64,000 nucleotides of DNA from Clostridia bacterium (lineage in GTDB: Bacteria; Bacillota; Clostridia; Oscillospirales; CAG-272). Below the pieces are notes generated by a model. The model ran no database searches and had not been told where the DNA came from. It saw only the letters and a list, made by a program, of their open reading frames with translations. Position numbers and translations under genes: made by a program. The first letter of the stretch is position 1. Each line of letters starts with the position of its first letter. Shown here piece after piece: positions 1,951 to 64,000 of this stretch. Location: positions 1,388-65,387 of the forward strand of contig JAFVQL010000078.1 in assembly GCA_017504785.1 (NCBI GenBank). Reading direction: 5' to 3'.

Positions 1951-1981
1951 ATTATAAAGAACAGCGCGAGGAGAATTTGGT

Positions 1982-3367: not shown

Positions 3368-3380
3368 TTACACGTAAAAA

Positions 3381-49623: not shown

Positions 49624-49639
49624 TATTTTGAGGAAAATT

Positions 49640-50590
49640 ATGATGCAGAAGAAAGTTACAATTATTGGCGCAGGTGCCGTCGGTGCCACCACCGCGTTCG
49701 CACTTTTGACCAGAGGCGCGGCCTCCGAGGTCGTCCTGATCGACGTGAATACCGAGAAGGCACTCGGCGAAGCGCTTGATATAAAGCAGGCAACCCCTTT
49801 TATTGACAATTGCGATATCTATGCCGGCTCGTATGCCGATGCGGTAGGCTCGGACGTTGTCGTTATCACCTCGGGTGTCGGAAGGAAGCCCGGCCAGTCA
49901 AGACTTGAGCTCGTGCAAACGAACGTGGGTATCATCAAGCAGATATCCCAAGAGATCGTAAAGGCGGCGCCGAACGCGATCTATATTCTCGTTGCCAACC
50001 CCGTGGATATTCTGACCTATGCCTTCCTCAAGTACACCGGGCTTCCCAAGAGTCAGGTGTTCGGAACGGGAACGGTGCTGGATACCATCCGCCTTCGCAC
50101 CCGTCTGGCGGAGATCTATAACGTAAATAAACAGCAGGTGCATGCGAACGTGCTCGGCGAGCACGGAGATACCTCCTTCGTCGCATGGTCCACCGCAACG
50201 ATCGCGGGCGTTCCGCTCTGCGAATTTGACAGCTCGATCGCATCCGCATACCGCCTTCCCAACGAGTATACGAGAGAGGACGTTGAGACCTACGTGAGAA
50301 AGTCCGGTGGAAAGATCATTGCACGCAAGGGCTGTACCGTGTACGGCATCGGCATGACCACGACGCATATCGTAAAATCCTTGGGCGGCAGCGCGGAGAC
50401 GGCGATGACGGTTTCTTCGCTTCACGAAGGGGAATACGGCATCAAGGACGTTTGCCTCAGCTCGCTTTCGTTGGTCGATCGCACCGGTGTGCGCTCGATT
50501 TTAACGCAAAAGCTTTCCGATGAGGAGCTGAAGAAGCTGCATGCATCCGCAGAGGCTCTTAAGGCCGTGATCAAAAACGTAACCTTTTAA
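49640..50590 (+). CDS. L-lactate/malate dehydrogenase-family enzyme (LDH-clade backbone, Arg at the substrate-discriminating position: possibly malate dehydrogenase)
   Basis: The ATG at 49640 follows GAGGA. It has VTIIGAGAVGATTAF (Rossmann fold) and the loop SGVGRKPGQSRLELV, with R where LDHs have Q102. It also has VLGEHGDTSF and GTGTVLDTIRLR. Confidence 0.75.
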   Translation: MMQKKVTIIGAGAVGATTAFALLTRGAASEVVLIDVNTEKALGEALDIKQATPFIDNCDIYAGSYADAVGSDVVVITSGVGRKPGQSRLELVQTNVGIIKQISQEIVKAAPNAIYILVANPVDILTYAFLKYTGLPKSQVFGTGTVLDTIRLRTRLAEIYNVNKQQVHANVLGEHGDTSFVAWSTATIAGVPLCEFDSSIASAYRLPNEYTREDVETYVRKSGGKIIARKGCTVYGIGMTTTHIVKSLGGSAETAMTVSSLHEGEYGIKDVCLSSLSLVDRTGVRSILTQKLSDEELKKLHASAEALKAVIKNVTF

Positions 50591-50600: not shown

Positions 50601-52031
50601 ATGAGAAAATTTGATACGAAAATACAACATTTGAAATATAAGGTGCTGCGTGAGGTCGCAAGACTTGCGTGGGAGGATAAGCTTCTTGAGAACCTGATGG
50701 ATATTCCCGGAAAGCTCGTTCCCGGCAAGGAAGCCACCATGCGCTGTTGCGTGTACAAGGAGAGGGCGATCCTCGGTGAGCGCGTAAAGATCGCGATGGG
50801 CGGCGATAAAGAAAACCCCAACGTGATCGAGGTGATCGAGATCGCTTGCGACGAATGTCCCGTCGGGGGCTTCGAGGTCACCAATGCGTGCCGCGGCTGT
50901 CTTGCCCACCGCTGTGAGGACGTTTGCAGATTCGGTGCCCTTTCCTTTGACGATAACCACGTGGCACATATCGATAAAACCAAGTGCAAGGAATGCGGCG
51001 CGTGTGCAAAGGTCTGCCCCTACACCGCGATCGTAAGCCGCAAGCGTCCCTGTCAGAATGCCTGCAAGGTCAAGGCGATCACGATGAACGAAGAGAAGTC
51101 GGCGAAGATCGATAACAGCAAGTGCATTCAGTGCGGCGCGTGCGTATATCAGTGTCCGTTCGGCGCGATCCAGGATAAGTCTTATATTCTGGATGCGATC
51201 GATATTCTTAAGAAGAGCAAGGCGTATACGGCGGAGAGCGATTATCACGCTTACGCCATCGTCGCTCCGTCCATCTCGAGCCAGTTCTCCTATGCGAAGC
51301 TCGGTCAGGTGGTTACGGGACTGAAAAAACTCGGCTTCCGCGATATCATCGAGGCGGCACTCGGCGCGGATATGGTCGCCATGTCCGAGGCGAAGGAGCT
51401 TTCCGAGAAGGGACTTCTCACAAGCTCGTGCTGTCCCGCCTTCGTGCAGTATATCAAATCCGCCTTCCCACATCTTGTGGAGCATATCTCGCATAATCTG
51501 TCGCCCATGGCGGTGCTTGCGAAGTACATAAAGGAAACGACGCCCGGAGCCAAGGTCGTCTTTATTGGTCCGTGCACCGCGAAAAAGGCAGAGGCGCAGC
51601 TTGCGTCCGTCAAGCCCTACGTGGATGCCGTGTTGACCTTCGAGGAGCTGCAAGCTCTCTTTGACAGCCGTGACTTCGATCTTTCCACCTTTGAGGAGGG
51701 CGTGCTGGATAACGCATCCTATTTCGGCCGTATCTTCGCAAGAAGCGGCGGACTCACCGATGCGGCCGTGCAGGCAATGAAGGAGCAGAATATCGATTTC
51801 GAGATCAAGCCCGTGGTTTGTGACGGGATCGAGGCGTGCCGTATGGCGCTTCTCAAGCTCGGCAAGGGTGTCCTTGATGGCAATTTCATCGAGGGTATGG
51901 CTTGTGTCGGCGGCTGTATCAACGGTGCGGGATGCTTGACGCACGGTGAAAAGAACAAGACCGAGGTGGATAAGTACGGCCGCGAGGCGCTGGAAAAAAC
52001 CATCTCCGATGCAATCTCGATCCTAAAATAA
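50601..52031 (+). CDS. hydA: [FeFe] hydrogenase, monomeric ferredoxin-dependent type
   Basis: 476 aa. It has several 4Fe-4S motifs (CKECGACAKVCP, CIQCGACVYQCP). The H-cluster motifs are TSSCCPAF, FIGPCTAKKAE and EGMACVGGCINGAG. Confidence 0.85.
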   Translation: MRKFDTKIQHLKYKVLREVARLAWEDKLLENLMDIPGKLVPGKEATMRCCVYKERAILGERVKIAMGGDKENPNVIEVIEIACDECPVGGFEVTNACRGCLAHRCEDVCRFGALSFDDNHVAHIDKTKCKECGACAKVCPYTAIVSRKRPCQNACKVKAITMNEEKSAKIDNSKCIQCGACVYQCPFGAIQDKSYILDAIDILKKSKAYTAESDYHAYAIVAPSISSQFSYAKLGQVVTGLKKLGFRDIIEAALGADMVAMSEAKELSEKGLLTSSCCPAFVQYIKSAFPHLVEHISHNLSPMAVLAKYIKETTPGAKVVFIGPCTAKKAEAQLASVKPYVDAVLTFEELQALFDSRDFDLSTFEEGVLDNASYFGRIFARSGGLTDAAVQAMKEQNIDFEIKPVVCDGIEACRMALLKLGKGVLDGNFIEGMACVGGCINGAGCLTHGEKNKTEVDKYGREALEKTISDAISILK

Positions 52032-52071: not shown

Positions 52072-53448
52072 ATGGAATATCGTATTGAACACGATTCTAT
52101 GGGTGAGATGAAGGTTCCTGCCGACCGTCTTTGGGCGGCGCAGACGCAGAGAAGTCATGAGAACTTCGAGATCGGCGTCGGGATCGAAACCATGCCCGCA
52201 GAGATCATTCACGCCTTTGGCTTCCTGAAAAAGGCGGCGGCGATCACGAACAATAAGCTTCGCCCCGAAAAGATGACGGAGGAAAAGCTCGGCGCGATCA
52301 AGGCGGCGTGCGACGAGGTGATGGCAGGGAAGCTGAACGGCCATTTTCCTCTCGTCGTATGGCAGACCGGATCGGGAACGCAGTCGAACATGAACTCCAA
52401 CGAGGTCATTGCCAACCGCGGAAACCAGATCCTCGGAAAGAAGCTTCTGCATCCCAACGACGATTCGAATATGAGCCAGTCCTCCAACGATACGTTCCCC
52501 ACGGCAATGCACATCGCGGCGGTTCTCGCGCTTGAGGATAAGCTCGTTCCCGCAGTGAAGGAGCTGATCGCTACCTTCGTAAGACTCGAAAAGGAAAACG
52601 AGGGCATCGTAAAGAGCGGCAGAACGCATCTGCAGGATGCAACTCCGATCAAGTTCAGCCAGGAGATCAGCGGCTGGAGATCCAGCCTTGAAAAGGACGT
52701 GGAGCTGATCGAGCGATCCATCGAGCCTCTTCGCGAGCTTGCTCTCGGCGGCACGGCGGTCGGCACGGGTCTGAATGCGCCCAAGGGCTTTGATACCGGC
52801 GTGGCGGAGGAGGTCTCGAAGATCACCGGAAAGAAATTCGTGACCGCATCCAATAAGTTCCATGCGCTCACCTCGAAGGATGAGCTCGTATTTGCACACG
52901 GCGCGATCAAGGCGCTGGCTTGTGACATGATGAAGATCGCAAACGATATTCGTTGGCTTGCATCCGGACCGAGAGACGGACTTGGCGAGATCTTCATTCC
53001 CGAGAATGAGCCCGGCTCCTCTATCATGCCCGGCAAGGTGAACCCCACGCAGTGCGAGGCGGTCACCATGGTAGCCGTTCAGGTTATTGGAAACGACGTT
53101 GCGGTCAGCATGGCGGCATCGCAGGGCAATTTCGAGCTGAACGTGTTTATGCCCGTTTGCATCTACAACTTCCTTCAGTCCGCAAGACTTCTTGCGGAGG
53201 CGATCGTTTCCTTTAATAAGAACTGTGCCGTAGGCATCAAGGCAAACAAGGAAAAGATGCACCACAATCTTCACAATTCTCTTATGCTCGTCACCGCCCT
53301 TAACCCCTATATCGGTTATGAAAATGCGGCAAAGACGGCAAAAAAGGCGTTTAAGGATAATATTTCTCTAAAGGAGGCCTGCGTTGCGCTCGGCTTCCTG
53401 ACGGAAGAAAAATTTGACGAGGTCTTCCACCCCGAACAGATGGTATAA
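52072..53448 (+). CDS. fumC: Class II fumarate hydratase
   Basis: 458 aa with the GSSIMPGKVNPTQCE signature. The N-terminus MEYRIEHDSMGEMKVPADRLWAAQTQRS is also typical. Confidence 0.95.
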   Translation: MEYRIEHDSMGEMKVPADRLWAAQTQRSHENFEIGVGIETMPAEIIHAFGFLKKAAAITNNKLRPEKMTEEKLGAIKAACDEVMAGKLNGHFPLVVWQTGSGTQSNMNSNEVIANRGNQILGKKLLHPNDDSNMSQSSNDTFPTAMHIAAVLALEDKLVPAVKELIATFVRLEKENEGIVKSGRTHLQDATPIKFSQEISGWRSSLEKDVELIERSIEPLRELALGGTAVGTGLNAPKGFDTGVAEEVSKITGKKFVTASNKFHALTSKDELVFAHGAIKALACDMMKIANDIRWLASGPRDGLGEIFIPENEPGSSIMPGKVNPTQCEAVTMVAVQVIGNDVAVSMAASQGNFELNVFMPVCIYNFLQSARLLAEAIVSFNKNCAVGIKANKEKMHHNLHNSLMLVTALNPYIGYENAAKTAKKAFKDNISLKEACVALGFLTEEKFDEVFHPEQMV

Positions 53449-53463: not shown

Positions 53464-54258
53464 ATGAAAGTCAGTTATTTCCCCGGGTGCACCCTGAAGA
53501 ATAAGGCAAAGGATCTGGATGCATATGCGTACAGATCGGCCGAGGCTCTGGGCGTTACCTTGGAAGAAATTGAAAATTGGCAGTGCTGCGGCGGCGTATT
53601 CACTACGTCGCAGGATGAGGTTGCCACAAAGCTTTCGTCGGTGCGCGCGCTGAAGTATGCGGCCGACCGCGAGCAGCCTCTCGTAACGGTTTGCTCCGCC
53701 TGCCATAACGTGATCAAGCAAACCAATCACGCGATGCAGACCAATAAGGAGTTTTCTGCAAAGGTGAACCGCTACATGGCAAACGACGGCGGATACAACG
53801 GAGAAGCAGAGGTATATCACTATCTCGAAATGCTCCGCGATCTCGTCGGCTTTGACAAGGTGAAGGAAGCGGTGAAAAACACCCTGAAGGGCAAAAAGAT
53901 CGCCGCGTATTACGGTTGTCTGCTTTTGAGGCCAAGCAAGGTCATGGGCATGGACGATCCCGAGAATCCCGTGATCATGGAGGATCTCATCCGTGCGCTC
54001 GGCGCGGAGGCGGTCATTTTCGCGAGAAGAAACGAGTGCTGCGGCGCATATACGTCTGTTGAAAGCCCCGAAACCGCAAAGAGAAATGCGAGCGCGATCG
54101 TAGAGAACGCAAAGGCGGCGGGTGCGGAAATGATCATCACGGCTTGCCCGCTTTGCAAGTATAACCTTGTAAAGAACGGTGCGGATATTCCTGTTGTTTA
54201 TTTCACCGAGATCCTCGCAGAGGCACTCGGCGTAAAGGAGGATACAGATGGAAAATAA
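53464..54258 (+). CDS. hdrB: Heterodisulfide reductase subunit B-like protein (two CCG domains)
   Basis: 264 aa with two CCG motifs: FPGC...WQCCGG...CSAC and YYGC...ECCGA...CPLC. Confidence 0.85.
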   Translation: MKVSYFPGCTLKNKAKDLDAYAYRSAEALGVTLEEIENWQCCGGVFTTSQDEVATKLSSVRALKYAADREQPLVTVCSACHNVIKQTNHAMQTNKEFSAKVNRYMANDGGYNGEAEVYHYLEMLRDLVGFDKVKEAVKNTLKGKKIAAYYGCLLLRPSKVMGMDDPENPVIMEDLIRALGAEAVIFARRNECCGAYTSVESPETAKRNASAIVENAKAAGAEMIITACPLCKYNLVKNGADIPVVYFTEILAEALGVKEDTDGK

Positions 54259-54637
54259 TAAGTATCTTCGCGAAGAGATCTTGAGAATGAGCGGTGTCAA
54301 TACGAGCAAGTGCATGAAATGCGGTAAATGCTCTGCGACCTGCCCCGCATACGACGAGATGGAGTATCATCCCCATCAGTTCGTCGGCATGGTGGAAATG
54401 GGAGATATCGAGCCCCTTCTCAAATCCGAGTCGCTCTATAAATGCTTATCCTGCTTCGCTTGCGTGGAGAGATGCCCGAGAGGCGTCGAGCCTGCAAAGG
54501 TCGTAGAGGCGGTGCGCCTCGTTGCGGTAAGACGTCAGGGCGCCAACCGTATGACGGCAAACGACGTTCCCGAAACGATCGAAGAGGATACGCCTCAGCA
54601 GCTTCTTGTAAGCGCATTCAGAAAATATACGAAGTAA
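54248..54637 (+). CDS. hdrC: Heterodisulfide reductase subunit C-like 4Fe-4S protein
   Basis: 129 aa with CMKCGKCSATCP and CLSCFACVERCP. It overlaps hdrB by 11 nt. Confidence 0.8.
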   Translation: MENNKYLREEILRMSGVNTSKCMKCGKCSATCPAYDEMEYHPHQFVGMVEMGDIEPLLKSESLYKCLSCFACVERCPRGVEPAKVVEAVRLVAVRRQGANRMTANDVPETIEEDTPQQLLVSAFRKYTK

Positions 54638-54652
54638 GGAGGAAAACACGGA

Positions 54653-56647
54653 ATGCAAAGAGTTGGTGTTTTTGTATGCTGGTGTGGAAGCAACATTGCA
54701 GGCACGGTAGACGTGCAGGCTGTATCCGAGGCGCTGAAAAACGAGCCCGGTGTAGTTTATTCCGCCAATTATCAGTACATGTGCTCTCAGGCCGGCCAGG
54801 AAATGATCAAGGCCGCCGTGAAGGAGCATCGTCTCACGGGAATCGTGGTTTGCTCCTGCTCTCCGAGAATGCACGAGGCAACCTTCCGTAAGACCGCGGC
54901 GGCGGCAGGGCTGAACCCCTATATGGTAGAGATCGCCAATATCCGCGAGCAGTGCTCTTGGGTACATAAGGATATGATGACGGGTACGGAAAAGGCGATC
55001 ATCCTCGGTAAGGCGGCGATCGCAAAGGTGAACCTTAACGCGCCCCTGACCCCCGGAGAATCTCCCGTAACCAAGCGTGCCCTCGTCATCGGCGGCGGTA
55101 TCGCAGGTATTCAGACGGCGCTGGACATTGCCGATGCGGGCTTCCCCGTAGACATCGTGGAGAAGCAGCCCACGATCGGCGGTAAGATGGCGCAGCTGGA
55201 TAAGACCTTCCCGACCTTGGACTGCGCGGCTTGTATCCTCACCCCCAAAATGGTGGACGTAGCGCAGAACGAGAAAATTCGTATCTTCTCTTACAGTGAG
55301 GTGACTGACGTGCATGGCTTCGTCGGTAACTTCGACGTAAAGATCAAGAAAAAGGCAAGATACGTAAAAGAGGATATTTGTACCGGTTGCGGTGCGTGCG
55401 TTGAAAAGTGCCCGATGAAGAAGGTGCCCAATGAGTTCAACCTCGGCATGGACAACCGTCACGCGATCTACATTCCCTTCGCGCAGGCAGTGCCGAAGGT
55501 TGCCACGATCGATCCGAACGCTTGCAATATGCTGAAGAACGGCAAGTGCGGCGTTTGCGCCAAGGTTTGTGCCGCGGGCGCGATCGATTATAAGCAGAAG
55601 GATGAGATCATTGAAGAAAAATACGGTGCGATCGTGGTTGCGACCGGCTTCAACCCCATCAGCATGGATAAGTTTGATGAGTTTGCGTATAGCCAGTCCA
55701 AGGACGTGATCACCTCGCTTGAATTCGAGCGTCTGACCAACGCGGCAGGCCCCTCCGCAGGTAAGCTTCTTCGCCCCTCGGACGGCAAGCATCCGCACAC
55801 GATCGTGTTCGTTCAGTGCGTAGGCTCGCGCTGTGCGGCCTGTGCCGAAAAGGGTAAGGAATACTGCTCGAAGATCTGCTGTATGTACACGGCAAAGCAC
55901 GCAATGCTCACCCGTGATAAGTATCCGGATACCGAGGTTTACGTATTCTATATCGATGCAAGAACCCCCGGTAAAAACTTTGATGAGTTCTACCGCCGCG
56001 CGGTAGAGGAATACGGCGTGAAGTATATTAAGGGTATGGTCGGTAAGGTCGTCCCCGAGGGCGATAAGCTCAAGGTGCAAGCGTCCGATCTGATCGCGAA
56101 TAAGCAGCTTCACATCGATGCCGATCTCGTGGTGCTGGCAGCGGCGATCGAGCCGGATAAGTCCGCGCGTCCTCTTGCGACGATGCTGACCGCGAGCATG
56201 GATACCAACGATTTCTTCACCGAGGCGCATCCCAAGCTTCGTCCCGTAGAGAGCCCCACGGCGGGCGTGTTCCTCTCGGGCGCGTGCCAGGGTCCCAAGG
56301 ATATTCCCGAAACCGTATCGCAGGCAGGTGCGGCGGCCTCCAAGGTCATCGGCCTTCTTGCCAAGGATAAGCTCACGGGCAACCCCTGCGTTGCAAGCTC
56401 GAACGAGCTGATGTGTAACGGATGCTCTACCTGTGAAAGAGTATGTCCCTACGGAGCGATCACGTATATCGATAAGGAATTCCGTATGCCCGACAGAACC
56501 ACGAAGATACGTCGCGTAGCCGTTGTCAATCCCGCGGTTTGCCAGGGATGCGGCGCTTGTACCGTAGCTTGCCCCTCGGGTGCTATGGACCTGAACGGAT
56601 TTAAGAACAGTCAGATTATGGCGGAGGTTGATGCAATATGCAAGTAA
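54653..56647 (+). CDS. hdrA: Heterodisulfide reductase subunit A-like FAD/FeS protein
   Basis: 664 aa with N-terminal Cys motifs (VCWCGSNI, CSCSPRMH), the FAD fold VIGGGIAGIQTALDIADAG, inserted ferredoxin motifs (CTGCGACVEKCP, CGVCAKVCA) and C-terminal CNGCSTCERVCP / CQGCGACTVACP. Confidence 0.88.
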   Translation: MQRVGVFVCWCGSNIAGTVDVQAVSEALKNEPGVVYSANYQYMCSQAGQEMIKAAVKEHRLTGIVVCSCSPRMHEATFRKTAAAAGLNPYMVEIANIREQCSWVHKDMMTGTEKAIILGKAAIAKVNLNAPLTPGESPVTKRALVIGGGIAGIQTALDIADAGFPVDIVEKQPTIGGKMAQLDKTFPTLDCAACILTPKMVDVAQNEKIRIFSYSEVTDVHGFVGNFDVKIKKKARYVKEDICTGCGACVEKCPMKKVPNEFNLGMDNRHAIYIPFAQAVPKVATIDPNACNMLKNGKCGVCAKVCAAGAIDYKQKDEIIEEKYGAIVVATGFNPISMDKFDEFAYSQSKDVITSLEFERLTNAAGPSAGKLLRPSDGKHPHTIVFVQCVGSRCAACAEKGKEYCSKICCMYTAKHAMLTRDKYPDTEVYVFYIDARTPGKNFDEFYRRAVEEYGVKYIKGMVGKVVPEGDKLKVQASDLIANKQLHIDADLVVLAAAIEPDKSARPLATMLTASMDTNDFFTEAHPKLRPVESPTAGVFLSGACQGPKDIPETVSQAGAAASKVIGLLAKDKLTGNPCVASSNELMCNGCSTCERVCPYGAITYIDKEFRMPDRTTKIRRVAVVNPAVCQGCGACTVACPSGAMDLNGFKNSQIMAEVDAICK

Positions 56648-57072
56648 ATGAATATAAGCCCTTAATCGTTGCGTTTTGTTGCAACTGGTGCTCTTATGCA
56701 GGCGCAGACCTTGCGGGAAACAACCGTCTTGCCTATCCCGCTGACGTAAAGATCATCCGCGTTCCTTGCTCCTGCAGAGTCAATCCCATGTTCATTCTCC
56801 GCGCCTTCCAAAGAGGAGCGGACGGTGTGATCATCTGCGGTTGCCATCCCGGCGACTGCCATTATACCTCGGGCAACTATTACACGCGCCGCCGTATGGC
56901 AGCCCTCTTCTCCATGCTGGATTTCCTCGGTATCGAGAGAGCGCGTACCCGCGTGGAATGGGTTTCTGCCGCAGAGGGTGCAAAGTTCGCCGCAACGATG
57001 AACGATTTTGCTGAAAAGGTTGCGGCCCTTGGAGAAAATAAGAGATTGGAGGATCTGAGATGCAAAAAATAA
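56638..57072 (+). CDS. mvhD: MvhD/FlxD-like [2Fe-2S] protein (methyl-viologen-reducing hydrogenase delta subunit family)
   Basis: 144 aa with FCCNWCSYAGADLAG...VPCSCRVNP...IICGCHPGDCHY. It overlaps hdrA by 10 nt. Confidence 0.88.
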   Translation: MQVNEYKPLIVAFCCNWCSYAGADLAGNNRLAYPADVKIIRVPCSCRVNPMFILRAFQRGADGVIICGCHPGDCHYTSGNYYTRRRMAALFSMLDFLGIERARTRVEWVSAAEGAKFAATMNDFAEKVAALGENKRLEDLRCKK

Positions 57073-58058
57073 CCCGTGAACAGCTGCTCGAAAAGGCCTG
57101 TGCGCTTCTTGCAAGCGGTGAAGTCAGCTGTGTGCTTGGCTGGGGCGCGGGCGAGTTTGGCTACGACGTGACTCCGACCGTTTTCAAAACCGCCGAGGAG
57201 TTGAAGGAAGGCTTCGTCTTCGGAGATTTCTGCGGTGTGAATTTCTCGAAATATCTCGTTTCCAAAACGCAGAAGCTTGAGGGAAAGATCCTCGTCTTCC
57301 TGAAGCCCTGTGATACGTATAGCTTCAATCAGCTCCTCACCGAGCACCGCTTTGACCGCGAAAAGGTATACGCCGTCGGCATCCCCTGCGAAGGTATGGC
57401 CGATATCGCGAAGGTCAAGGCGATCGCAGGCGAGGGAATCGTCTCGATCGAAGCCAAGGGCGAAAAGCTCCTCGTTACAACGCTTTATGAGGATGCGCCC
57501 GTAGAGATCGATGCAAAGGACGTGCTTGCCGAGCGCTGCGTCAACTGCAAGAGCAAAAAGCACGTGGCGTACGACGAGCTTCTCGGCGAGGAGGGCGACG
57601 TTTTGGACAGCGCCCGCTTCGATGAGGTCGCGCGCCTCGAGGCGATGACGCCGGATGAGAGATTTGCCTTCTGGCAAAACGAGCTTTCGAAATGCATCCG
57701 TTGCAACGCTTGCCGCGATGCCTGCCCCGCATGCACCTGCGAGAAGTGCGTTTTCGATAACCCGAATTCGGGCGTGGAAAATAAATCTCCCGCCAATAGC
57801 TTTGAAGAAAAAATGTTCCATATCATTCGCGCATTCCATGTGGCCGGTCGTTGCACCGACTGCGGTGAGTGCTCGAGAGTCTGCCCGCAGAACATTCCTC
57901 TCCACCTTCTGAACCGCAAGTTCATCAAGGATATCAACGAGTTCTACGGTGAGTATCAGGCAGGTGCCGAGGTCGGTGCGAGAGCACCCCTTGTGAACTA
58001 TACCACCGAGGATCTTGAGCCCGGAGAGGTCTTTGATAGGAGGGGTGAAAATGCTTAA
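57060..58058 (+). CDS. AsrA/HydB-like iron-sulfur protein (FlxC-like position)
   Basis: 332 aa with CIRCNACRDACPACTCEKC and RCTDCGECSRVCP. It overlaps mvhD by 13 nt. Confidence 0.65.
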   Translation: MQKITREQLLEKACALLASGEVSCVLGWGAGEFGYDVTPTVFKTAEELKEGFVFGDFCGVNFSKYLVSKTQKLEGKILVFLKPCDTYSFNQLLTEHRFDREKVYAVGIPCEGMADIAKVKAIAGEGIVSIEAKGEKLLVTTLYEDAPVEIDAKDVLAERCVNCKSKKHVAYDELLGEEGDVLDSARFDEVARLEAMTPDERFAFWQNELSKCIRCNACRDACPACTCEKCVFDNPNSGVENKSPANSFEEKMFHIIRAFHVAGRCTDCGECSRVCPQNIPLHLLNRKFIKDINEFYGEYQAGAEVGARAPLVNYTTEDLEPGEVFDRRGENA

Positions 58059-59079
58059 ATGTTCTTTGGATAAGCTACAAGCGCTTTTTGCGAAAATTGC
58101 AGAAAATGCAAAGCTTTATTTACCTATTGATAATTCCGACGGTACGGCTTCCTACGGGGAGTGGAGCGAGGGCACCGCGTGGTCGAATGCCTTGAACACC
58201 ACGAAAAGCCCCAAGGACTTCTTCTTTCCTCAAACCGAGGACCTGATGAAGTTCAAGACCGAAGGGAAAAATATCGAGGTGATCGACGTGCGCCGCGAGT
58301 GCGAGGATTTCGTTATCTTCGGTGTGCGCGCGTGTGACGTAAAGAGCTTCGATATCCTTGACAGAGTGTTTTTGACCGAGCCGCGCGACAGCTACTACGC
58401 CATGAAGCGCGCGCACGGCATCATCGTTTCCGTTGCTTGCCAAAAGCCTGCCGAGACCTGCTTCTGCGGCACGTTCGGCATCGATGCGACCGAGCCGGCA
58501 GGTGACGTGACCGCTTGGAAGAGCGAGGATGCGCTCTACCTGCGCGCCAATACCGAGAAGGGAAGTGCTCTGCTTGATAAGCTCGCCGATCTTCTCGAGG
58601 AGGGCTCCGACGAGGCGGTAACCGCCCAGAAGGAAAAGACCAAGAAGATCCTCGATAAGCTTCCTTTGAAGGAGCTGACCACCGATGCCTTCGGCGGCGG
58701 AAAAACCAAGGAGCTCTTTGACGATCCCGCATGGGACGCGCTTTCCGCGACCTGCCTCGGCTGCGGAACCTGCACCTTCGTTTGCCCCACCTGCCAGTGC
58801 TACGATATCAAGGATTTCAATACCGGTAACGGCGTTGTCCGTTACAGATGCTGGGATTCCTGCATGTATTCCGAATTCACCCGAATGGCACACGGTAATA
58901 ACCGACTGACGCAGAAGGAGCGCTTCCGTCAGAGATTCATGCATAAGCTCGTGTATTTCCCCGAAAACAACGACGGTATGTTCAGCTGCGTTGGTTGCGG
59001 CCGATGCCTTGCAAAGTGCCCGATCTCGATGAACATCGTGAAGGTCATGAAGAAGATTGGAGGAAATAAAGGTGAATAA
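58051..59079 (+). CDS. AsrA/HydB-like iron-sulfur protein, tandem paralog (FlxB-like position)
   Basis: ATG at 58051 after GGAGGGG, 342 aa, with CLGCGTCTFVCPTCQCYD and CVGCGRCLAKCP. It overlaps the upstream gene by 8 nt. Confidence 0.7.
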   Translation: MLKCSLDKLQALFAKIAENAKLYLPIDNSDGTASYGEWSEGTAWSNALNTTKSPKDFFFPQTEDLMKFKTEGKNIEVIDVRRECEDFVIFGVRACDVKSFDILDRVFLTEPRDSYYAMKRAHGIIVSVACQKPAETCFCGTFGIDATEPAGDVTAWKSEDALYLRANTEKGSALLDKLADLLEEGSDEAVTAQKEKTKKILDKLPLKELTTDAFGGGKTKELFDDPAWDALSATCLGCGTCTFVCPTCQCYDIKDFNTGNGVVRYRCWDSCMYSEFTRMAHGNNRLTQKERFRQRFMHKLVYFPENNDGMFSCVGCGRCLAKCPISMNIVKVMKKIGGNKGE

Positions 59080-59905
59080 TGTAAATGATACTTTGATTCC
59101 GACCGTCGGCGTCATTACCGATGTTCGCATTGACACGCCGGATATCAAAACCTTCCGCGTGGTAACCACCGACGGAAAGAAGGCGTTTGATCACCGTCCC
59201 GGTCAGTGTGCAATGCTCTCTATCCCGGGTGTTGGCGAGGCGATGTTCTCTATCACCTCTTCGCCCACGAACACCGAATATATGGAGTTTTCCATTAAGA
59301 AGTGCGGCTGTGTGACCGAATGGCTGCATCAGGCAGAGGTAGGCCAGCAGATCACGATCCGTGGGCCTTACGGCAAGCCTTTCCCCGTGGACGACGTGTT
59401 CGCAGGAAAGAACCTTCTCTTTATCGCGGGCGGTGTAGGACTTGCGCCCCTGCGCTCGGTCATCAACTACTGCCGTCACTACCGCGACCGCTACGGCGAT
59501 ATCGATATCGTATACGGCTCGCGCAGTAAGGCAGATCTTCTGGACTATCAGGAGATCATCGATGAGTGGTCGAACGATGCGGGCGTCAGAGTGCATCTGA
59601 CGATCGATAACGCACAGCCTGATTGGGACGGTCACGTAGGCTTCGTTCCGAACTACGTAAAGGAGCTTGGCTTTGACACCAATAAGACCGCCGTGCTTTG
59701 CGGACCGCCCATTATGATCAAGTTTACCCTGGAAGGCCTCGTTGCTCTCGGCTTTGACAAGACGCAGGTATACACCACGCTGGAGCTTCGCATGAAGTGC
59801 GGTGTCGGCAAGTGCGGAAGATGCAACGTGGGCGCAAAGTACGTCTGCAAGGATGGCCCCGTATTCAGATGCGACGAGCTTGAAGAGCTTCCGAGCGAAT
59901 ATTAA
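59072..59905 (+). CDS. AsrB/HydG/FlxA-like FAD- and NAD(P)H-binding oxidoreductase with C-terminal [2Fe-2S] site
   Basis: The likely GTG start at 59072 follows GGAGGA (the tracked ORF starts at 59057). It has ...RPGQCAMLSIPGVGEAMFSITSSP... (FAD), LLFIAGGVGLAPLRS (NAD(P)H) and CGVGKCGRCNVG. Confidence 0.75.
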   Translation: MNNVNDTLIPTVGVITDVRIDTPDIKTFRVVTTDGKKAFDHRPGQCAMLSIPGVGEAMFSITSSPTNTEYMEFSIKKCGCVTEWLHQAEVGQQITIRGPYGKPFPVDDVFAGKNLLFIAGGVGLAPLRSVINYCRHYRDRYGDIDIVYGSRSKADLLDYQEIIDEWSNDAGVRVHLTIDNAQPDWDGHVGFVPNYVKELGFDTNKTAVLCGPPIMIKFTLEGLVALGFDKTQVYTTLELRMKCGVGKCGRCNVGAKYVCKDGPVFRCDELEELPSEY

Positions 59906-59918
59906 AGGAGAAAAAAGA

Positions 59919-60593
59919 ATGGAAAAGACAGTCAATATATTTCTTTTCGGTAAAAAATACGAAGTACCGGAAAATCTGACCATTATGACCGCAATGGAAT
60001 ATGCAGGCTACCAGCTCGTTCGCGGATGCGGATGCAGAAACGGCTTCTGCGGTGCCTGTGCAACCATTTACCGTATCAAGGGAGATAAGGAGCTGCATGC
60101 GTGCCTCGCATGCCAGACCAAGGTTGAGGATAATATGTATATCGCGACCCTGCCTTTCTTCCCCCTTGTAAAAGAGGTTTACGACATTGAGAAGATCCCC
60201 GTGAACGAAACCGTGATGATGCAGCTCTATCCCGAGATCTACGCTTGCATCGGATGCAACGCCTGCACCAAGGCTTGCACGCAGGGACTGAACGTTATGC
60301 AGTACATCGCTTATGCACAGCGCGGCGATTTCGAGAAGTGTGCAGAGGAGTCCTTTGACTGCGTAATGTGCGGCGTTTGCTCGTCCAGATGCCCCGCAGG
60401 CATCTCGCATCCGCAGGTTGCTATGCTTGCAAGAAGAATCAACGGTAAGTACCTTGCGCCCGGATGCGGCCACCTTGAGGATCGCGTGAAGGAGATCAAG
60501 GACGGCACGTTTAACGATCTGATCGAGGCTCTCATGCAGAAGCCCATCGAGGAGCTGAAAGAGCTCTACAACACCCGCGAGATCGAAAAGTAA
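59919..60593 (+). CDS. Succinate dehydrogenase/fumarate reductase iron-sulfur subunit-like protein
   Basis: ATG at 59919 after AAAGGAG, 224 aa. It has a [2Fe-2S] motif CRNGFCGACATIYRIKGDKELHACLAC and cluster motifs CIGCNACTKAC and CVMCGVCSSRCP. Confidence 0.75.
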   Translation: MEKTVNIFLFGKKYEVPENLTIMTAMEYAGYQLVRGCGCRNGFCGACATIYRIKGDKELHACLACQTKVEDNMYIATLPFFPLVKEVYDIEKIPVNETVMMQLYPEIYACIGCNACTKACTQGLNVMQYIAYAQRGDFEKCAEESFDCVMCGVCSSRCPAGISHPQVAMLARRINGKYLAPGCGHLEDRVKEIKDGTFNDLIEALMQKPIEELKELYNTREIEK

Positions 60594-60605
60594 GGAGGAA
60601 GCAAG

Positions 60606-62210
60606 ATGTATTCTGAACAGTTTAAAGACTCTCTTTCGCTCGTAGAAGCGGCCAGAGAGAAAAACATTGCAAATGAGCCCGTCCGTATGACGGCAGAGCA
60701 GAAGGAAAAAGTGCTTGCATCCTTCCACCCCGATTATAAGATGGATGAGTTCTCGGTTCTCGCGATCGGCCCCAACAAGGGCGATAGGGTTCCGAAGGAG
60801 CTTGCCGAGATCCTGCAGGCGCACAGCCGTATTACGGCGGATAGCGTATGCCTTGAAAAACCCGACTACGAGGCGGACGTTCTCGTTATCGGCGGCGGCG
60901 GTGCGGGTGCATCCGCAGCCATCGAGGCACATGAGGCAGGCGCAAAGGTTATGGTCGTAACCAAGCTTCGTATGGGCGATGCCAATACGATGATGGCAGA
61001 GGGCGGTATTCAGGCGGCTGATAAGCCCAACGATTCTCCCGCTATCCACTTCGTGGATGCCTTCGGCGGCGGGCACTTCGCGGCAAAGAGAGAGCTTCTC
61101 AAGAAGCTCGTTTGCGATGCCCCCGAGGCGATCGCATGGCTCTCTTCTCTCGGCGTTGAGTTCGATAAGGAAGAGGACGGAACGATGGTAACCACGCACG
61201 GCGGCGGTACCTCTCGCAAGCGTATGCACGCGGCGAAGGACTATTCGGGCGCGGAGATCATGAGAACCCTGCGTGACGAGGTTCTCAACCGCAAGATCCC
61301 CGTGATCGATTTCACCGCGGCGATCGAGCTGATCCTCGATGAAAACGGCAATGCCGCAGGTGCGGTCCTTATGAATATGGAAACCAAGGAGCTTCTCGTT
61401 GCCAAAGCAAAGACCGTTATCATCGCAACGGGCGGTGCGGGAAGAATGCACTATCAGGGCTTCCCGACCTCTAACCACTACGGCGCAACGGCAGACGGTC
61501 TGGTTCTCGGCTACCGCGCGGGCGCAAAGCTTCTTTACGCAGAGACGCTGCAGTATCACCCCACGGGCGTTGCATTCCCAGAGCAGATCTTCGGTGCGCT
61601 CGTAACCGAGAAGGTTCGCTCTCTCGGCGCAAAGCTCGTAAATAAGAACGGTGAAGTATTTATGCATCCCTTGGAGACCCGTGACGTAACGGCGGCTTCG
61701 ATCATCCGCGAGTGCTTCGAGCGCGATAACGGTATCGACTGCGGTAACGGCAAGGGCGTTTGGCTCGATACTCCCATGATCGAAAAGATCGGCGGAGAGG
61801 GAACGATCATGAAGAGGATCCCCGCCATGTGGAGAATGTTTGAAAAGTACGGCATTGATATCCGTTATGAGCCCATTCTCGTATATCCCACCTTGCACTA
61901 TCAGAACGGCGGTCTGGACATTACGGACGACTGTATGACAACAAATATTAACAATTTGTTCGTTGCAGGTGAGGCTGTCGGCGGTATTCACGGCAAGAAC
62001 CGACTGATGGGCAACTCGCTTCTCGATATCATCGTATTCGGTAGAAGCGCAGGTAAAAACGCTGCTGCAAAGGCAAAGGGCGTTACGCTTGGTAAGCTCT
62101 CGCTCGATCACGTAGCGAAGTTTGAAGCCGAGATCAAAAAGGCCGGCATCGAAACCGAAACCGTTTCCCCTAAGCTTCTTCCTAACTACACGAATCAGAA
62201 AAGCATTTAA
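60606..62210 (+). CDS. Soluble fumarate reductase/succinate dehydrogenase flavoprotein-like subunit (non-covalent FAD type)
   Basis: 534 aa with VLVIGGGGAGASAAIEA, LQYHPTG and GKNRLMGNSLLDIIVFGR. The position of the covalent-FAD His (SHT in SdhA/FrdA) reads ANT. The N-terminal extension of about 90 aa is unusual. Confidence 0.75.
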   Translation: MYSEQFKDSLSLVEAAREKNIANEPVRMTAEQKEKVLASFHPDYKMDEFSVLAIGPNKGDRVPKELAEILQAHSRITADSVCLEKPDYEADVLVIGGGGAGASAAIEAHEAGAKVMVVTKLRMGDANTMMAEGGIQAADKPNDSPAIHFVDAFGGGHFAAKRELLKKLVCDAPEAIAWLSSLGVEFDKEEDGTMVTTHGGGTSRKRMHAAKDYSGAEIMRTLRDEVLNRKIPVIDFTAAIELILDENGNAAGAVLMNMETKELLVAKAKTVIIATGGAGRMHYQGFPTSNHYGATADGLVLGYRAGAKLLYAETLQYHPTGVAFPEQIFGALVTEKVRSLGAKLVNKNGEVFMHPLETRDVTAASIIRECFERDNGIDCGNGKGVWLDTPMIEKIGGEGTIMKRIPAMWRMFEKYGIDIRYEPILVYPTLHYQNGGLDITDDCMTTNINNLFVAGEAVGGIHGKNRLMGNSLLDIIVFGRSAGKNAAAKAKGVTLGKLSLDHVAKFEAEIKKAGIETETVSPKLLPNYTNQKSI

Positions 62211-62225: not shown

Positions 62226-63494
62226 ATGAAACTTTTCGGCGGTGTGATTCCGATCACCGGTATCACCTTTCTTATGTTCTCGATCTTTGCGATCATCGCC
62301 GTTGGCTATGCGCTCGGACGCATCACGGTGAAGGGCGTATCCCTCGGAGATGCGGGCGTGTTCATCGTGGCGCTTGTCTTCGGTTGCCTCTTTTTCAATC
62401 AGCTCGAGTCCGAACTTGTCATTAAGATCGCGGGCGGCATTGAGGTCGGCTTTGCGGATAAGGCGCTCAAGATCGTAGAAAATCTCGGTCTGATTCTGTT
62501 CGTAACCTCGGTCGGCTTTATTGCAGGTCCGAAATTCTTTGGTAACTTCAAGAAAAACTTTAAGTCCTATGTTGTGCTCGCGCTCGTCGTTATCCTTGCC
62601 GGCGGTCTTGCGGCGGTTGGCTGCATCTACTTCGGCAGAGGCATTATGGGCGAGGCCAACCATGAGGAGTTCACGGCAATGATCGTCGGACTTCTCTCCG
62701 GATCGCTCACCTCCACGCCCGCGTTCTCCGCGGCGAAGGCAACGGTTGATGCCGCTTACGAGGGTGCCGTTTCCGTAGGTCACGGTATTGCTTACATCTT
62801 CGGCGTTATCGGCGTCGTTTTGTTCGTTCAGCTGATTCCCAAGCTCACGCGCGCGGATATGGACGCTGAGCGCGCGAAGCTCGCAGAGTTCTCCGCTTCC
62901 GCAGAAACCGCCGCAAAGCCCGAAAAGAAGCGCAAGCTTCTCGAGCTTGATGGGCACGGATTCGCGGCGTTTGCGCTTGCGGCGATCGTTGGTACTTTCG
63001 TCGGTATGATCAAGATCCCGCTCTCCGCGAAGGGACTTGCGGGAACCTGCTTCTCGCTGACGACGACCGGCGGCTGCCTTCTCACCTCTCTCGTTTTCGG
63101 CCACTTTGCTCACGTTGGCCCTGTAAACGTAACGCCCAAGGATTCCACCCTTAAGATCTTTAAGGAGCTTGGCCTTATCCTCTTCCTTGTAGGCGCGGGC
63201 GTTGCGGGCGGAGCAGAGTTCGTAGAGCTCTTTAAGTTCAGCTACTTCATCTACGGTATAGTAATGACCCTCATTCCCATGATCGTAGGCTACTTCTTCG
63301 CGAAGTACGTGCTGAAGCTCAACCTTCTGAACAACCTCGGTTCTCTTACCGGCGCTATGACGAGCACTCCGGCGCTCGGAACGCTGACAGGGGTTGCCAA
63401 GACGGATGACGTTGCTGCGGCTTACGCGGCAACCTACCCGATCGCGCTGATCGCGGTCGTTCTCGTCTCGCAGTTCCTCGTTATCTTGTTTTAA
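62226..63494 (+). CDS. AAE (aspartate:alanine exchanger / YidE-YbjL-SucE) family transporter, short form
   Basis: ATG at 62226 after AGGAGG. Two homologous 5-6-TM halves are joined by a charged linker of about 40 aa (...ADMDAERAKLAEFSASAETAAKPEKKRKLL...). No TrkA-C-like central domains are visible. Confidence 0.6.
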   Translation: MKLFGGVIPITGITFLMFSIFAIIAVGYALGRITVKGVSLGDAGVFIVALVFGCLFFNQLESELVIKIAGGIEVGFADKALKIVENLGLILFVTSVGFIAGPKFFGNFKKNFKSYVVLALVVILAGGLAAVGCIYFGRGIMGEANHEEFTAMIVGLLSGSLTSTPAFSAAKATVDAAYEGAVSVGHGIAYIFGVIGVVLFVQLIPKLTRADMDAERAKLAEFSASAETAAKPEKKRKLLELDGHGFAAFALAAIVGTFVGMIKIPLSAKGLAGTCFSLTTTGGCLLTSLVFGHFAHVGPVNVTPKDSTLKIFKELGLILFLVGAGVAGGAEFVELFKFSYFIYGIVMTLIPMIVGYFFAKYVLKLNLLNNLGSLTGAMTSTPALGTLTGVAKTDDVAAAYAATYPIALIAVVLVSQFLVILF

Positions 63495-63532: not shown

Positions 63533-64000
63533 ATGGCAAAGCTTGATTTAACCAAGTATGGCATCCTCGGCACGACCGAGGTTGTGCACAACCCCTCCTA
63601 TGAGGAGCTCTTCGCGGCAGAGACCGATCCCACCCTTGAGGGCTTTGAGAAGGGTCAGCTCACCGAGCTTGGCGCAGTAAACGTTATGACCGGTATCTAC
63701 ACCGGCCGTTCCCCCAAGGATAAGTTCATCGTTATGGACGATACCTCCAAGGACACCGTTTGGTGGACCTCCGATGAGTTCAAGAACGACAATAAGCCCG
63801 CTTCGATCGAGGCATGGAACGCTTGCAAGAAGCTGGCTATGGATCAGCTCTCCGGCAAGAAGCTTTACGTTATGGACCTGTTCTGCGGCACCAACAAGGA
63901 TTCCCGCATGGCGATCCGTTTCGTAATGGAGGTTGCTTGGCAGGCACACTTCGTTAAGAACATGTTCATCACGCCCTCTGCAGAGGAGCTTGCAAACTTC
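63533..64000 (+). CDS. pckA: Phosphoenolpyruvate carboxykinase (ATP), 5' partial
   Basis: The frame is open from ATG 63533 to the window end (156 codons), so it is absent from the ORF track. The sequence is [67 protein letters not shown]...[18 protein letters not shown]. This is the typical ATP-PEPCK N-terminus, close to those of succinate-producing anaerobes. Confidence 0.92.

Follow-up and report, generated by a model that had tools for sequence, protein, structure and literature searches.

A Flx-Hdr-type gene module joined to a soluble FrdBA pair in gut Clostridia: a candidate ferredoxin-coupled NADH:fumarate reductase

Introduction

Can the reduction of fumarate be used by a soluble, electron-bifurcating enzyme to drive the reduction of ferredoxin? 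This question is raised by nine genes located at positions 53464-62210 of the plus strand of a 64,000-nt stretch of DNA from a Clostridia bacterium (contig JAFVQL010000078.1; the whole stretch is called the window hereafter), in which a module of Hdr and Flx type is followed by two genes whose products resemble the iron-sulfur (FrdB) and flavoprotein (FrdA) subunits of fumarate reductase. A preliminary description of this DNA proposed that the cluster encodes a ferredoxin-coupled NADH:fumarate reductase and implied that such an operon was new. The second point did not survive the literature. The "succinate operon" of Pseudoclostridium thermosuccinogenes (CDQ83_RS03365-RS03315), which comprises fumarate hydratase, seven Flx-Hdr genes, two fumarate reductase genes and a small open reading frame (ORF), was published together with the same hypothesis linking Flx-Hdr to fumarate and ferredoxin (PMC7282089, 2020), and a preprint by Koendjbiharie and van Kranenburg (2019, 10.20944/preprints201912.0288.v1) holds the same hypothesis, as cited in PMC7282089. 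Expression of all genes of that operon is high and is jointly regulated by CO2, by a factor of about 4, and the same authors remark that no succinate is formed when H2 is added, which is what a fumarate reductase that reduces ferredoxin would lead one to expect (PMC7282089). Independently, a similar proposal was made for tubeworm symbionts and Thioflavicoccus mobilis, where flxABCD-hdrABC are interspersed with korABCD and tfrAB and where both a thiol-mediated and a direct bifurcating route to fumarate reductase were put forward (PMC6315080, 2019). In addition, for Ruminococcus champanellensis a 2024 preprint mentions that STRING connects HdrA with succinate dehydrogenase/fumarate reductase.

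The cluster of the window is a gut-Clostridia example of a published, biochemically uncharacterised operon, and the idea about its function has been in print since 2019-2020. What we add is the breadth and strictness of its synteny, a signature of the flavoprotein family and a catalogue of the alternative donor modules with which the FrdBA pair is associated. On this basis, the nine genes probably encode one soluble multi-subunit enzyme that oxidises NADH with fumarate and conserves energy through flavin-based electron bifurcation.

Results

Nine ORFs, all on the plus strand, were found in the cluster in the order hdrB, hdrC, hdrA, mvhD/flxD, flxC, flxB, flxA, frdB-like and frdA-like (Table 1), and the same gene set is called on identical public contigs. 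The preliminary description had joined these genes by overlaps of 8-13 nt or gaps of 15 nt or less, and this held when the junctions were checked on the ORFs: hdrB and hdrC overlap by 11 nt, a 15-nt gap precedes hdrA, overlaps of 10 nt (hdrA/mvhD), 13 nt (mvhD/flxC), 8 nt (flxC/flxB, with the flxB start at ATG 58051) and 8 nt (flxB/flxA, with the flxA start at 59072 taken from the identical public contigs) follow, and the last two genes are set off by gaps of 13 nt (flxA/frdB, with the frdB start at ATG 59919) and 12 nt (frdB/frdA). The nine genes are translationally coupled. The unit is also tightly packed against its neighbours, since 15 nt separate the end of fumC from hdrB and only 6-15 nt separate frdA from the start of the downstream transporter gene. 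A promoter and terminator scan of the region between 45 and 64 kb gave counts no higher than those of shuffled sequence, with a single good −35/−10 match, located before rex, and no convincing internal terminator.

Conservation of the arrangement was evaluated in a scan of one genome per GTDB species, from which we retained the closest 80 loci (FrdA-like proteins 73-90% identical). Colinearity was determined by tblastn with the proteins of the window and was counted on those 57 loci whose DNA extends 7.3 kb or more beyond frdA on its upstream side. In 56 of these 57 species-level loci all nine genes were present and colinear, and for this reason the arrangement is not due to chance. As for the flanks, the gene directly preceding hdrB was fumC in 52 of 55 loci, and the AAEx transporter gene stood directly downstream of frdA in 48 of 70. 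The closest genomes were metagenome-assembled genomes (MAGs) of uncultured gut and rumen Oscillospiraceae/Congzhengia-like bacteria, but the same order was also found in a Pyramidobacter MAG, that is, in the Synergistota, so that the co-occurrence of frdBA with hdrBCA-mvhD-flxCBA, on which the original proposal depended, extends well outside this genome. The nine genes are likewise colinear in locus L095, which carries mdh and fumC upstream, the genes for GTP-dependent phosphoenolpyruvate carboxykinase (PEPCK) and Rex downstream, and an FrdA 77% identical to that of the window.

We then asked what each protein is likely to be, using the NCBIfam equivalog cut-offs as the threshold for family membership and Pfam for domains. 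The cysteine motifs quoted in the preliminary description were all present in the translations. The HdrB-like protein matched the Pfam CCG domain over two stretches (85.6 bits), the NCBIfam HdrB model with 157.4 bits (cut-off 345), the SdhE-type MFR anchor model with 157.1 bits, also under its cut-off, and HdrB of known structure (PDB 8rvv_B) with an E-value of 4e-38. It has both CX31-40CCX33-35CX2C motifs expected of methanogen HdrB, and its ten cysteines (C9, 41, 42, 77, 80, 152, 192, 193, 228 and 231) are all kept in 62 of 62 orthologues. The HdrC-like protein matched Fer4_8/Fer4_17 in Pfam and HdrC in NCBIfam (65.6 bits, cut-off 160), its eight cysteines being kept in 63 of 63. The HdrA-like protein aligned over its full length (residues 3-661) with HdrA of the methanogen complex (PDB 5ODC_A; 694 bits, E = 1.5e-207) and with positions 1-641 of the NCBIfam HdrA2 model (777 bits, cut-off 1100), and its cluster cysteines are kept in 59-61 of 61 orthologues. 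The next protein, MvhD/FlxD-like, matched Pfam FlpD (184 bits) and also the C-terminal part of the HdrA2 model, positions 643-774 (177 bits).

The three proteins that follow, together with MvhD, give the cluster the composition of the Desulfovibrio-type FlxABCD-HdrABC set: the FlxA domains, FlxB, FlxC and FlxD, the last being MvhD, all adjoin hdrABC. The FlxA-like protein contains FAD_binding_6, NAD_binding_1 and DHODB_Fe-S_bind domains and resembles HydG/AsrB (190-224 bits). FlxB-like matched Pfam Fer4_22 (104 bits) as well as the HydB (192.5 bits) and AsrA (144.9 bits) models, both under their cut-offs. FlxC is the weaker evidence within the Flx set, as it matched generic Fer4 families only, in addition to a weak FrhB_FdhB_C match (E = 0.009), although a PF04432 match is recorded for its Pyramidobacter orthologue; 13 of its cysteines are invariant in 67 of 67 sequences. 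The locus had been described as holding two tandem AsrA-like proteins. This applies to the second (58051-59079), which is AsrA/HydB-like, whereas the first resembles it weakly and only in the C-terminal CX2CX2CX3CPXCXC region (E = 9e-4).

The FrdB-like protein presented Fer2_4/Fer2 and Fer4_9/Fer4_7 domains and a match to the N-terminal region of TfrB (E = 6e-10). The motifs reported for it are there, but its likeness to SdhB/FrdB is weak: the dhsB model gave 30.8 bits against a cut-off of 88, short of what defines the SdhB/FrdB subunit of complex II, the TfrB model gave 38 bits (cut-off 385), and its profile found weak, generic dicluster matches among PDB sequences (FrdB/SdhB, RnfC, HdrC). 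Its AlphaFold2 (AF2) model, built from a shallow alignment of 82-94% identical sequences, reached a pLDDT of 59.5, too low for judging the fold. Domain searches found no CCG domain in this protein, nor did it show a [3Fe-4S] pattern, since both C-terminal motifs carry four cysteines. The 12 ligand cysteines are nevertheless kept in 84 of 84 sequences, and the gene adjoins frdA in 84 of 84 loci, always directly upstream and also in distant lineages. A 727-aa protein from one NCBI contig (P0122) reads as a FrdB-FrdA fusion; it is a single sequence and a possible frameshift or assembly artefact, to which we give little weight, and if real it would support a physical association of the two subunits. 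A second apparent fusion of 689 aa (P0292) was rejected, as it contains an internal duplication and is probably an assembly artefact.

The flavoprotein carries the attributes of a complex II catalytic subunit, namely a FAD_binding_2 fold (Pfam, 239 bits), a capping domain and the dicarboxylate His/Arg set. Alignment to E. coli FrdA and within the family identified H318, E335, R338, R359-D360, H431 and R466 as invariant, with H318, E335, R338, R359, H431 and R466 corresponding to H232, E245, R248, R287, H355 and R390 of E. coli FrdA; the equivalence of R359 and R287 was taken from the shared RD motif because HMMER misaligned that loop. Its AF2 model (pLDDT 89.5, pTM 0.90) had E. coli FrdA (1kf6_A) as top Foldseek match, with E = 5e-34 and a TM score of 0.70. 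In other respects it departs from the SdhA/FrdA pattern under which it was first described. No Pfam match to PF02910, the C-terminal helical domain of complex II, was obtained. The TfrA, SdhA/FrdA and NadB models were matched only over their first ∼390-430 positions, the best NCBIfam family being TfrA (346.6 bits, cut-off 718, model positions 6-426 of 546), followed by sdhA_frdA (281.8 bits, cut-off 567.3, positions 1-416 of 568) and nadB (275.8 bits, cut-off 452.75, below the threshold for an L-aspartate oxidase). In place of the C-terminal domain there is a conserved N-terminal extension of 88 residues (window 60606-60870), confidently folded in the model, in which H41-P42-D43 and G55 are invariant and N57 and G59 nearly so. 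The extension may act as a docking surface, as a substitute for the missing domain or as a lid over the active site.

A further difference concerns the flavin. Asn127, invariant in 50 family members, aligns with His44 of E. coli FrdA, the residue that binds FAD covalently, and because Asn stands where the flavinylated His is, the FAD is predicted to be non-covalent. Work on FrdA H44 mutants has established that enzymes without covalent FAD reduce fumarate but oxidise succinate poorly. By analogy, Asn127 favours fumarate reduction over succinate oxidation.

These data bear directly on whether the protein could instead be an L-aspartate oxidase-like enzyme, a reductase of another unsaturated acid or part of a succinate-oxidising, confurcating dehydrogenase working in reverse. 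The nadB score lies close to that of sdhA/frdA, some relatives are annotated publicly as "L-aspartate oxidase", and the complex II C-terminal domain is lacking, all of which would suit such a role. On the other hand, an iron-sulfur partner always adjoins the gene (84 loci), unlike NadB; the pair is found repeatedly with fumC, malate dehydrogenase (MDH) and PEPCK genes, or with those of ATP-citrate lyase, aconitase and IDH; the non-covalent FAD argues against succinate oxidation; and fumarate reduction agrees with the exporter-type transporter and with succinate production by P. thermosuccinogenes. Ruminococcus flavefaciens, a succinate producer that is represented among the loci (L074), fits as well. 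We consider this alternative very improbable as a whole, and a stand-alone L-aspartate oxidase, the possibility raised against the original proposal, does not apply, because the fumarate/succinate catalytic set is kept and the iron-sulfur partner is conserved.

The composition of the cluster suggests how a bifurcating NADH:fumarate reductase could operate. FlxA, through its FAD and [2Fe-2S] cluster, would oxidise NADH, and FlxB, FlxC and FlxD/MvhD would relay the electrons, through Fe-S clusters, to HdrA's FAD, where the pair would be split. The low-potential electron would travel through the ferredoxin-like domains of HdrA to ferredoxin, and the high-potential one through HdrC (2x[4Fe-4S]) and the non-cubane clusters of HdrB to FrdB ([2Fe-2S] plus 2x[4Fe-4S]) and from there to the non-covalent FAD of FrdA, at which fumarate would be reduced to succinate. 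The net reaction would be 2 NADH + fumarate + Fd(ox) → 2 NAD+ + succinate + Fd(red, 2 e−). With potentials of −320 mV for NADH, about +30 mV for fumarate/succinate and about −400 to −500 mV for ferredoxin, the coupled reaction is predicted to be exergonic. Fumarate would be supplied next door by PEPCK, the MDH-type dehydrogenase and FumC, succinate would leave through the AAEx transporter, and reduced ferredoxin would be re-oxidised by the group-B [FeFe] hydrogenase or by Rnf or Ech encoded elsewhere.

Two other accounts of the same genes were weighed against this one. The first keeps two enzymes and a diffusible or protein-bound thiol between them, so that Flx-HdrABC would reduce ferredoxin together with a disulfide at HdrB, and the resulting thiol would then reduce fumarate, in the manner of methanogen thiol:fumarate reductase. 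It is a published model, stated in PMC7282089 ("ferredoxin (and thiols)") and in Text S1 Note 3 of PMC6315080. HdrB does keep all ten CCG cysteines of the disulfide-reducing site, TfrA is the top NCBIfam match of the flavoprotein, and in P. thermosuccinogenes frdA is followed by an 83-aa ORF with very high expression, whose product is a possible carrier. Yet FrdBA alone would have no known thiol-oxidising site, because the FrdB-like protein has no CCG domain, and there is one HdrB only per cluster. Neither a small conserved ORF nor a DsrC-like gene is present in the cluster, where the transporter gene follows frdA at once, and FrdBA pairs elsewhere are fed by protein Fe-S, flavin or haem modules and not by thiols. 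Moreover, Clostridia are not known to synthesise coenzyme M or coenzyme B (CoM, CoB). A thiol shuttle appears unlikely to us.

The second account does without bifurcation: the enzyme would oxidise NADH, or NADH together with reduced ferredoxin, with fumarate, and HdrA and its partners would serve only as a wire or as a confurcating entry, so that ferredoxin would not be reduced and no extra energy would be conserved. Bifurcation has never been shown for any Flx-Hdr, HdrA homologues that do not bifurcate are known (e.g. sHdr, PDB 6tjr being among the HdrA matches), and FrdBA is paired elsewhere with a plainly non-bifurcating NuoF-like protein or NrfH-like cytochrome. However, the HdrA of the cluster is a full-length relative of the proven bifurcating HdrA, with all its ferredoxin-like domains and cysteine ligands; a module of seven subunits would be extravagant for a task for which a single NuoF-like partner appears enough in Gammaproteobacteria; a ferredoxin-type hydrogenase is co-encoded; and H2 inhibits succinate formation in P. 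thermosuccinogenes. We find this explanation improbable too, and retain bifurcation to ferredoxin and fumarate as the working model.

The distribution of the FrdBA pair was also followed beyond these genomes. In an exhaustive search of representative sequences, only about ten full-length clusters at 50% identity shared the N-terminal extension, and below them scores dropped to generic TfrA/NadB/SdhA relatives. A profile search recovered members of 530-552 aa in Bathyarchaeota, Asgard archaea, Thermoplasmata, Chloroflexia and WOR-3, as well as further ones in Desulfovirgula, Selenihalanaerobacter, Pyramidobacter and Gammaproteobacteria, and a cluster look-up added one Prochlorococcus strain. 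The gene neighbourhoods (Table 1, lower part) show that HdrC-HdrB directly upstream of FrdB-FrdA is a recurrent core. HdrCB plus FrdBA correspond to methanogen TfrAB taken apart; in TfrAB itself the CCG clusters are joined to the FrdB-like domain and pass electrons to it. Fumarate as the substrate is supported because FrdBA repeatedly sits among genes of the tricarboxylic acid (TCA) cycle, a reductive TCA (rTCA) cluster included. The Asgard and Thermoplasmata loci L089 and L093 are candidates for bifurcating fumarate reductases that depend on H2 in non-methanogenic archaea, and in both the genes stand behind those of a 2-oxoacid:ferredoxin oxidoreductase.

Judged by its partners, FrdBA seems to be a self-contained, pluggable soluble fumarate reductase fed by other proteins, and the catalogue as a whole suggests that soluble fumarate reductases whose donors can be exchanged form a family not recognised so far. 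An extended form of the working model, which we put forward tentatively, would make HdrB a pure relay into FrdB, and no disulfide reductase any more, within a thiol-independent megacomplex of the nine proteins that passes NADH electrons directly to fumarate and ferredoxin. FrdBA (FrdB of 225 aa, FrdA of 530-550 aa) would be an ancient reductase served by different partners, with Flx-Hdr in Bacillota, Synergistota and Gammaproteobacteria, Mvh-Hdr in Asgard archaea, Bathyarchaeota and Thermoplasmata, and NuoF-like, ETF or NrfH-like proteins elsewhere.

We also examined the genes around the cluster, reading the array over 45.6-64 kb. The nine genes lie inside a long co-directional array that runs from rex to the start of the PEPCK gene and that is completed on both sides by genes for succinate formation. 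As previously noted, fumC lies directly upstream and a SucE-family transporter gene directly downstream, which TIGR00979 and Asp-Al_Ex matches confirmed. The dehydrogenase gene at 49628-50590 scores above the cut-off for L-lactate dehydrogenase (L-LDH), but its specificity loop, GVGRKPGQSR, has Arg where LDHs have Gln, and the Q102R rule separates LDH (Gln) from malate dehydrogenase (Arg) at this position. A lactate dehydrogenase of a separate pathway was rejected on account of this residue; the specificity-loop Arg and the place near fumC make the protein probably an LDH-like malate dehydrogenase, a gene that automatic annotation would probably misname. The PEPCK gene is cut by the end of the window and is present in full on the identical contig L001. 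As predicted from sequence, the flanking genes and the cluster together would constitute a complete branch from phosphoenolpyruvate (PEP) through oxaloacetate, malate and fumarate to succinate and its export.

The transporter is the sole membrane protein of this set, and no genes for membrane anchors (FrdCD/SdhCD) are present in the cluster. No adh or DsrC-like gene was found among the genes of 45.6-64 kb. The absence of FrdC/D and DsrC genes alongside the cluster, as originally described, was borne out.

The monomeric group-B [FeFe] hydrogenase encoded between mdh and fumC, whose translation contains the H-cluster motifs TSCCP, GPCxxKxxE and MACxGGCxxG, may serve to discharge reduced ferredoxin. 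Seven related loci carry a homologue instead at 1-7 kb downstream of frdA (L034, L039, L049, L056, L057, L060 and L081); the link between hydrogenase and cluster is recurrent but positionally loose, because the hydrogenase site differs between loci. Directly upstream of the mdh-hydA-fumC-hdr-flx-frd array stands a pair formed by a HydS-type putative sensory hydrogenase gene and a phosphatase gene overlapping it by 8 nt. This pair resembles the HydS-phosphatase-HydA2 unit of Ruminococcus albus and suggests that the succinate branch is regulated in response to H2. An outlet for ferredoxin is consistent with the HydS/PP2C sensor and with the ferredoxin-type hydrogenase encoded nearby.

The region is headed by rex, and a rex gene also follows the cluster in L095. 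A search of the whole window for the Rex operator TTGTKAAN4TTMACAA with up to 2 mismatches gave no match. The remainder of the window is ordinary housekeeping DNA. Positions 449-4000 hold a phage-type integrase gene (449-1843) followed by an ORF of 461 aa without Pfam match and coincide with a local dip in GC content (0.42 compared with about 0.53); they may represent the edge of a mobile element unrelated to the cluster.

Table 1. Genes of the 45.6-64 kb region of the window and gene neighbourhoods of FrdB-FrdA in other genomes
Feature	Location	Strand	Remarks
Rex redox-sensing repressor	45623-46240		preceded by a good sigma-70-like promoter (45402-45430)
HydS-type putative sensory [FeFe] hydrogenase	46782-48458		558 aa; Fe_hyd_lg_C, PF04060 FeS and PAS domains
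PP2C/SpoIIE-type phosphatase	48451-49623		
LDH-family dehydrogenase	49628-50590	+	NCBIfam L-LDH, 347.5 bits
Monomeric group-B [FeFe] hydrogenase	50601-52031	+	TIGR04105, 570.7 bits (cut-off 450)
Class II fumarate hydratase FumC	52072-53448	+	TIGR00979, 714.5 bits (above cut-off)
HdrB-like	53464-54258	+	264 aa; two CCG domains; two predicted non-cubane [4Fe-4S] clusters
HdrC-like	54248-54637	+	129 aa; 2x[4Fe-4S]; 2x CX2CX2CX3CP
HdrA-like	54653-56647	+	664 aa; flavo-iron-sulfur subunit; candidate bifurcating FAD site
MvhD/FlxD-like	56638-57072	+	144 aa; [2Fe-2S] adaptor
FlxC-like Fe-S protein	57060-58058	+	332 aa
FlxB-like Fe-S protein	58051-59079	+	342 aa; sulfhydrogenase beta / AsrA-like
FlxA-like NAD(P)H-binding FAD/[2Fe-2S] protein	59072-59905	+	277 aa; alternative TTG start at 59057
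FrdB/TfrB-N-like Fe-S subunit	59919-60593	+	224 aa; [2Fe-2S] motif of plant type; two [4Fe-4S] motifs, each with all four Cys
FrdA-like soluble flavoprotein	60606-62210	+	534 aa; predicted site of fumarate reduction; FAD predicted to be non-covalent
AAEx (AspT/YidE/YbjL/SucE-type) transporter, candidate succinate exporter	62226-63494	+	422 aa; Pfam Asp-Al_Ex, 186 bits, 2 stretches
ATP-dependent PEPCK, 5′ part	63533-64000	+	NCBIfam PEPCK, 228 bits over first 155 aa
Desulfovirgula			HdrC-HdrB-FrdB-FrdA
Bathyarchaeota			POR ... HdrA-MvhD-HdrC-HdrB-FrdB-FrdA; without hydrogenase genes
Asgard MAG	L089, 617-9656		HdrA-MvhD-MvhG-MvhA-(HycI)-HdrC-HdrB-FrdB-FrdA; HdrA confirmed by tblastn
Thermoplasmata	L093, 1957-10653		POR-HdrA-MvhD-MvhG-MvhA-HdrC-HdrB-FrdB-FrdA
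Tubeworm-symbiont-type cluster	L092		HdrA-FlxDC-FlxB-FlxA-POR subunits-HdrC-HdrB-x-FrdB-FrdA
Marine Gammaproteobacteria	L088, 9366-12891		FrdB-FrdA-NuoF-like (NADH-binding subunit)
WOR-3	L091, 5892-10724		ETF-alpha-Fer4-FrdB-FrdA; also acyl-CoA dehydrogenase
Selenihalanaerobacter	L085, 8793-11617		NrfH-like (NrfH/NapC-type) cytochrome-FrdB-FrdA
rTCA cluster	L094, 2783-12883		AclBA (ATP-citrate lyase)-aconitase-FrdB-FrdA-IDH

Discussion

Our analysis leaves the reading of this cluster as a ferredoxin-coupled NADH:fumarate reductase well supported in silico, and each check suggested in the preliminary description that lent itself to computation agreed with it. Gene content, motifs, catalytic residues, synteny and pathway context sustain what was proposed in the preliminary description, while bifurcation, ferredoxin coupling and the high-potential route, like the assembly into a single complex, NADH as donor, ferredoxin as second acceptor and a thiol-free passage from HdrB/C to FrdB, are steps that we infer.

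Several observations count against this reading. None of the nine proteins reaches its NCBIfam equivalog cut-off, and the fully kept disulfide-site cysteines of HdrB are equally compatible with a retained thiol/disulfide chemistry. In a Congzhengia sp. MAG (JAZPYM010000111, locus L028), which is the exception to the conserved arrangement, frdBA (9247-11605) stands behind a gene for a CitMHS-family transporter; its FrdB and FrdA are 87% and 82% identical to those of the window, no hdr or flx genes lie within 10 kb on either side, and FrdBA is, for that reason, not obligatorily tied to Hdr-Flx. The pairings of FrdBA with NuoF-like, ETF and NrfH-like donors have the same bearing. The literature is equally cautious: Flx-Hdr itself is only "proposed" to bifurcate (PMC10084766), and a 2024 study, which contributes co-expression data, still calls the Hdr-Flx coupling to fumarate a "theoretical model", lists its in vivo function as unknown and reports that in Endoriftia the expression of tfrAB did not follow that of the Hdr-Flx genes (PMC11636981). 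Finally, the literature searched contained no biochemical characterisation of this or an orthologous complex, so that the preliminary description appears to have been correct in knowing of none with this composition.

If the proposed coupling is true, fumarate would join crotonyl-CoA, heterodisulfide and a few others as a high-potential acceptor that drives ferredoxin reduction, and gut and rumen Clostridia would possess an energy-conserving route to succinate without a fumarate respiratory chain. Among its carriers, at least 56 genomes at species level, would be the isolate Yeguia hominis NSJ-40 (L050) and a MAG of Ruminococcus flavefaciens. Such an enzyme would explain how energy is conserved in succinate-forming Clostridia that have no known quinone-linked fumarate reductase, would affect how models of gut and rumen ecosystems treat the fluxes of H2, succinate and propionate and would bear on the engineering of P. 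thermosuccinogenes for succinate production. If, in addition, FrdBA is pluggable, H2-driven bifurcating fumarate reductases would exist in non-methanogenic archaea. The question of a bifurcating fumarate reductase is directly testable.

Among known systems, the nearest is the succinate operon of P. thermosuccinogenes, compared here by gene order and by lengths taken from the supplementary coordinates of PMC7282089. The order fumC-hdrB-hdrC-hdrA-flxD-flxC-flxB-flxA-frdB-frdA is the same, and the gene sizes there (784, 325, 5348 for five genes, 676 and 1603 bp) are close to those of the window (795, 390, 5277, 675 and 1605 bp). The hosts differ, one being a thermophilic Clostridium of the Acetivibrio group and the other an uncultured gut Oscillospiraceae-like bacterium. 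So do the flanks: an 83-aa ORF follows frdA in P. thermosuccinogenes, whereas a 422-aa AAEx transporter gene and an ATP-dependent PEPCK gene follow it here, and only here is a group-B [FeFe] hydrogenase gene inserted between mdh and fumC. L095, with its GTP-dependent PEPCK and its FrdA 77% identical to ours, is likely a close proxy for the P. thermosuccinogenes locus. The clusters of tubeworm symbionts, of which L092 is an example, likewise combine Flx-Hdr genes with a soluble FrdBA/TfrAB-like pair. In them, however, frdBA adjoins hdrCB, with kor genes between hdrA and hdrBC, and the setting is autotrophic CO2 fixation with a 2-oxoglutarate:ferredoxin oxidoreductase instead of fermentation.

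The FlxABCD-HdrABC of Desulfovibrio vulgaris (Ramos et al. 2015) has the same seven subunit types and is proposed to bifurcate NADH-derived electrons towards ferredoxin and a high-potential acceptor. Its gene order is reversed relative to ours, its acceptor is the DsrC disulfide and its operon is linked to an alcohol dehydrogenase, whereas the cluster of the window contains neither and has FrdBA attached. The structurally proven bifurcating core is that of methanogen MvhADG-HdrABC (PDB 5ODC, 8RVU/8RVV), of which HdrA, HdrB, HdrC and MvhD are clear homologues of the proteins found here; the motif architecture of methanogen HdrABC is present in them, with scores below the NCBIfam equivalog cut-offs. 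In that complex, electrons of H2 pass through a [NiFe] hydrogenase to CoM-S-S-CoB, whereas in the present cluster Flx, with NADH, takes the place of the donor module and fumarate, reached via FrdBA, is the likely acceptor. The archaeal Mvh-Hdr-FrdBA clusters bridge the two types.

Two fumarate reductases complete the comparison. TfrAB of Methanothermobacter is soluble and contains the same parts as FrdB, HdrC and HdrB here, but TfrB fuses an FrdB-like with an HdrB-like CCG portion, whereas in the window these are split and the CCG domains are encoded by hdrB, six genes upstream. E. coli FrdABCD (PDB 1KF6) and the flavoprotein agree in their catalytic residues and in the fold of the FAD and capping domains (TM 0.70). 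Compared with it, the enzyme predicted here has no membrane anchors, covalent FAD, C-terminal domain or [3Fe-4S] motif, and its donor would not be quinol.

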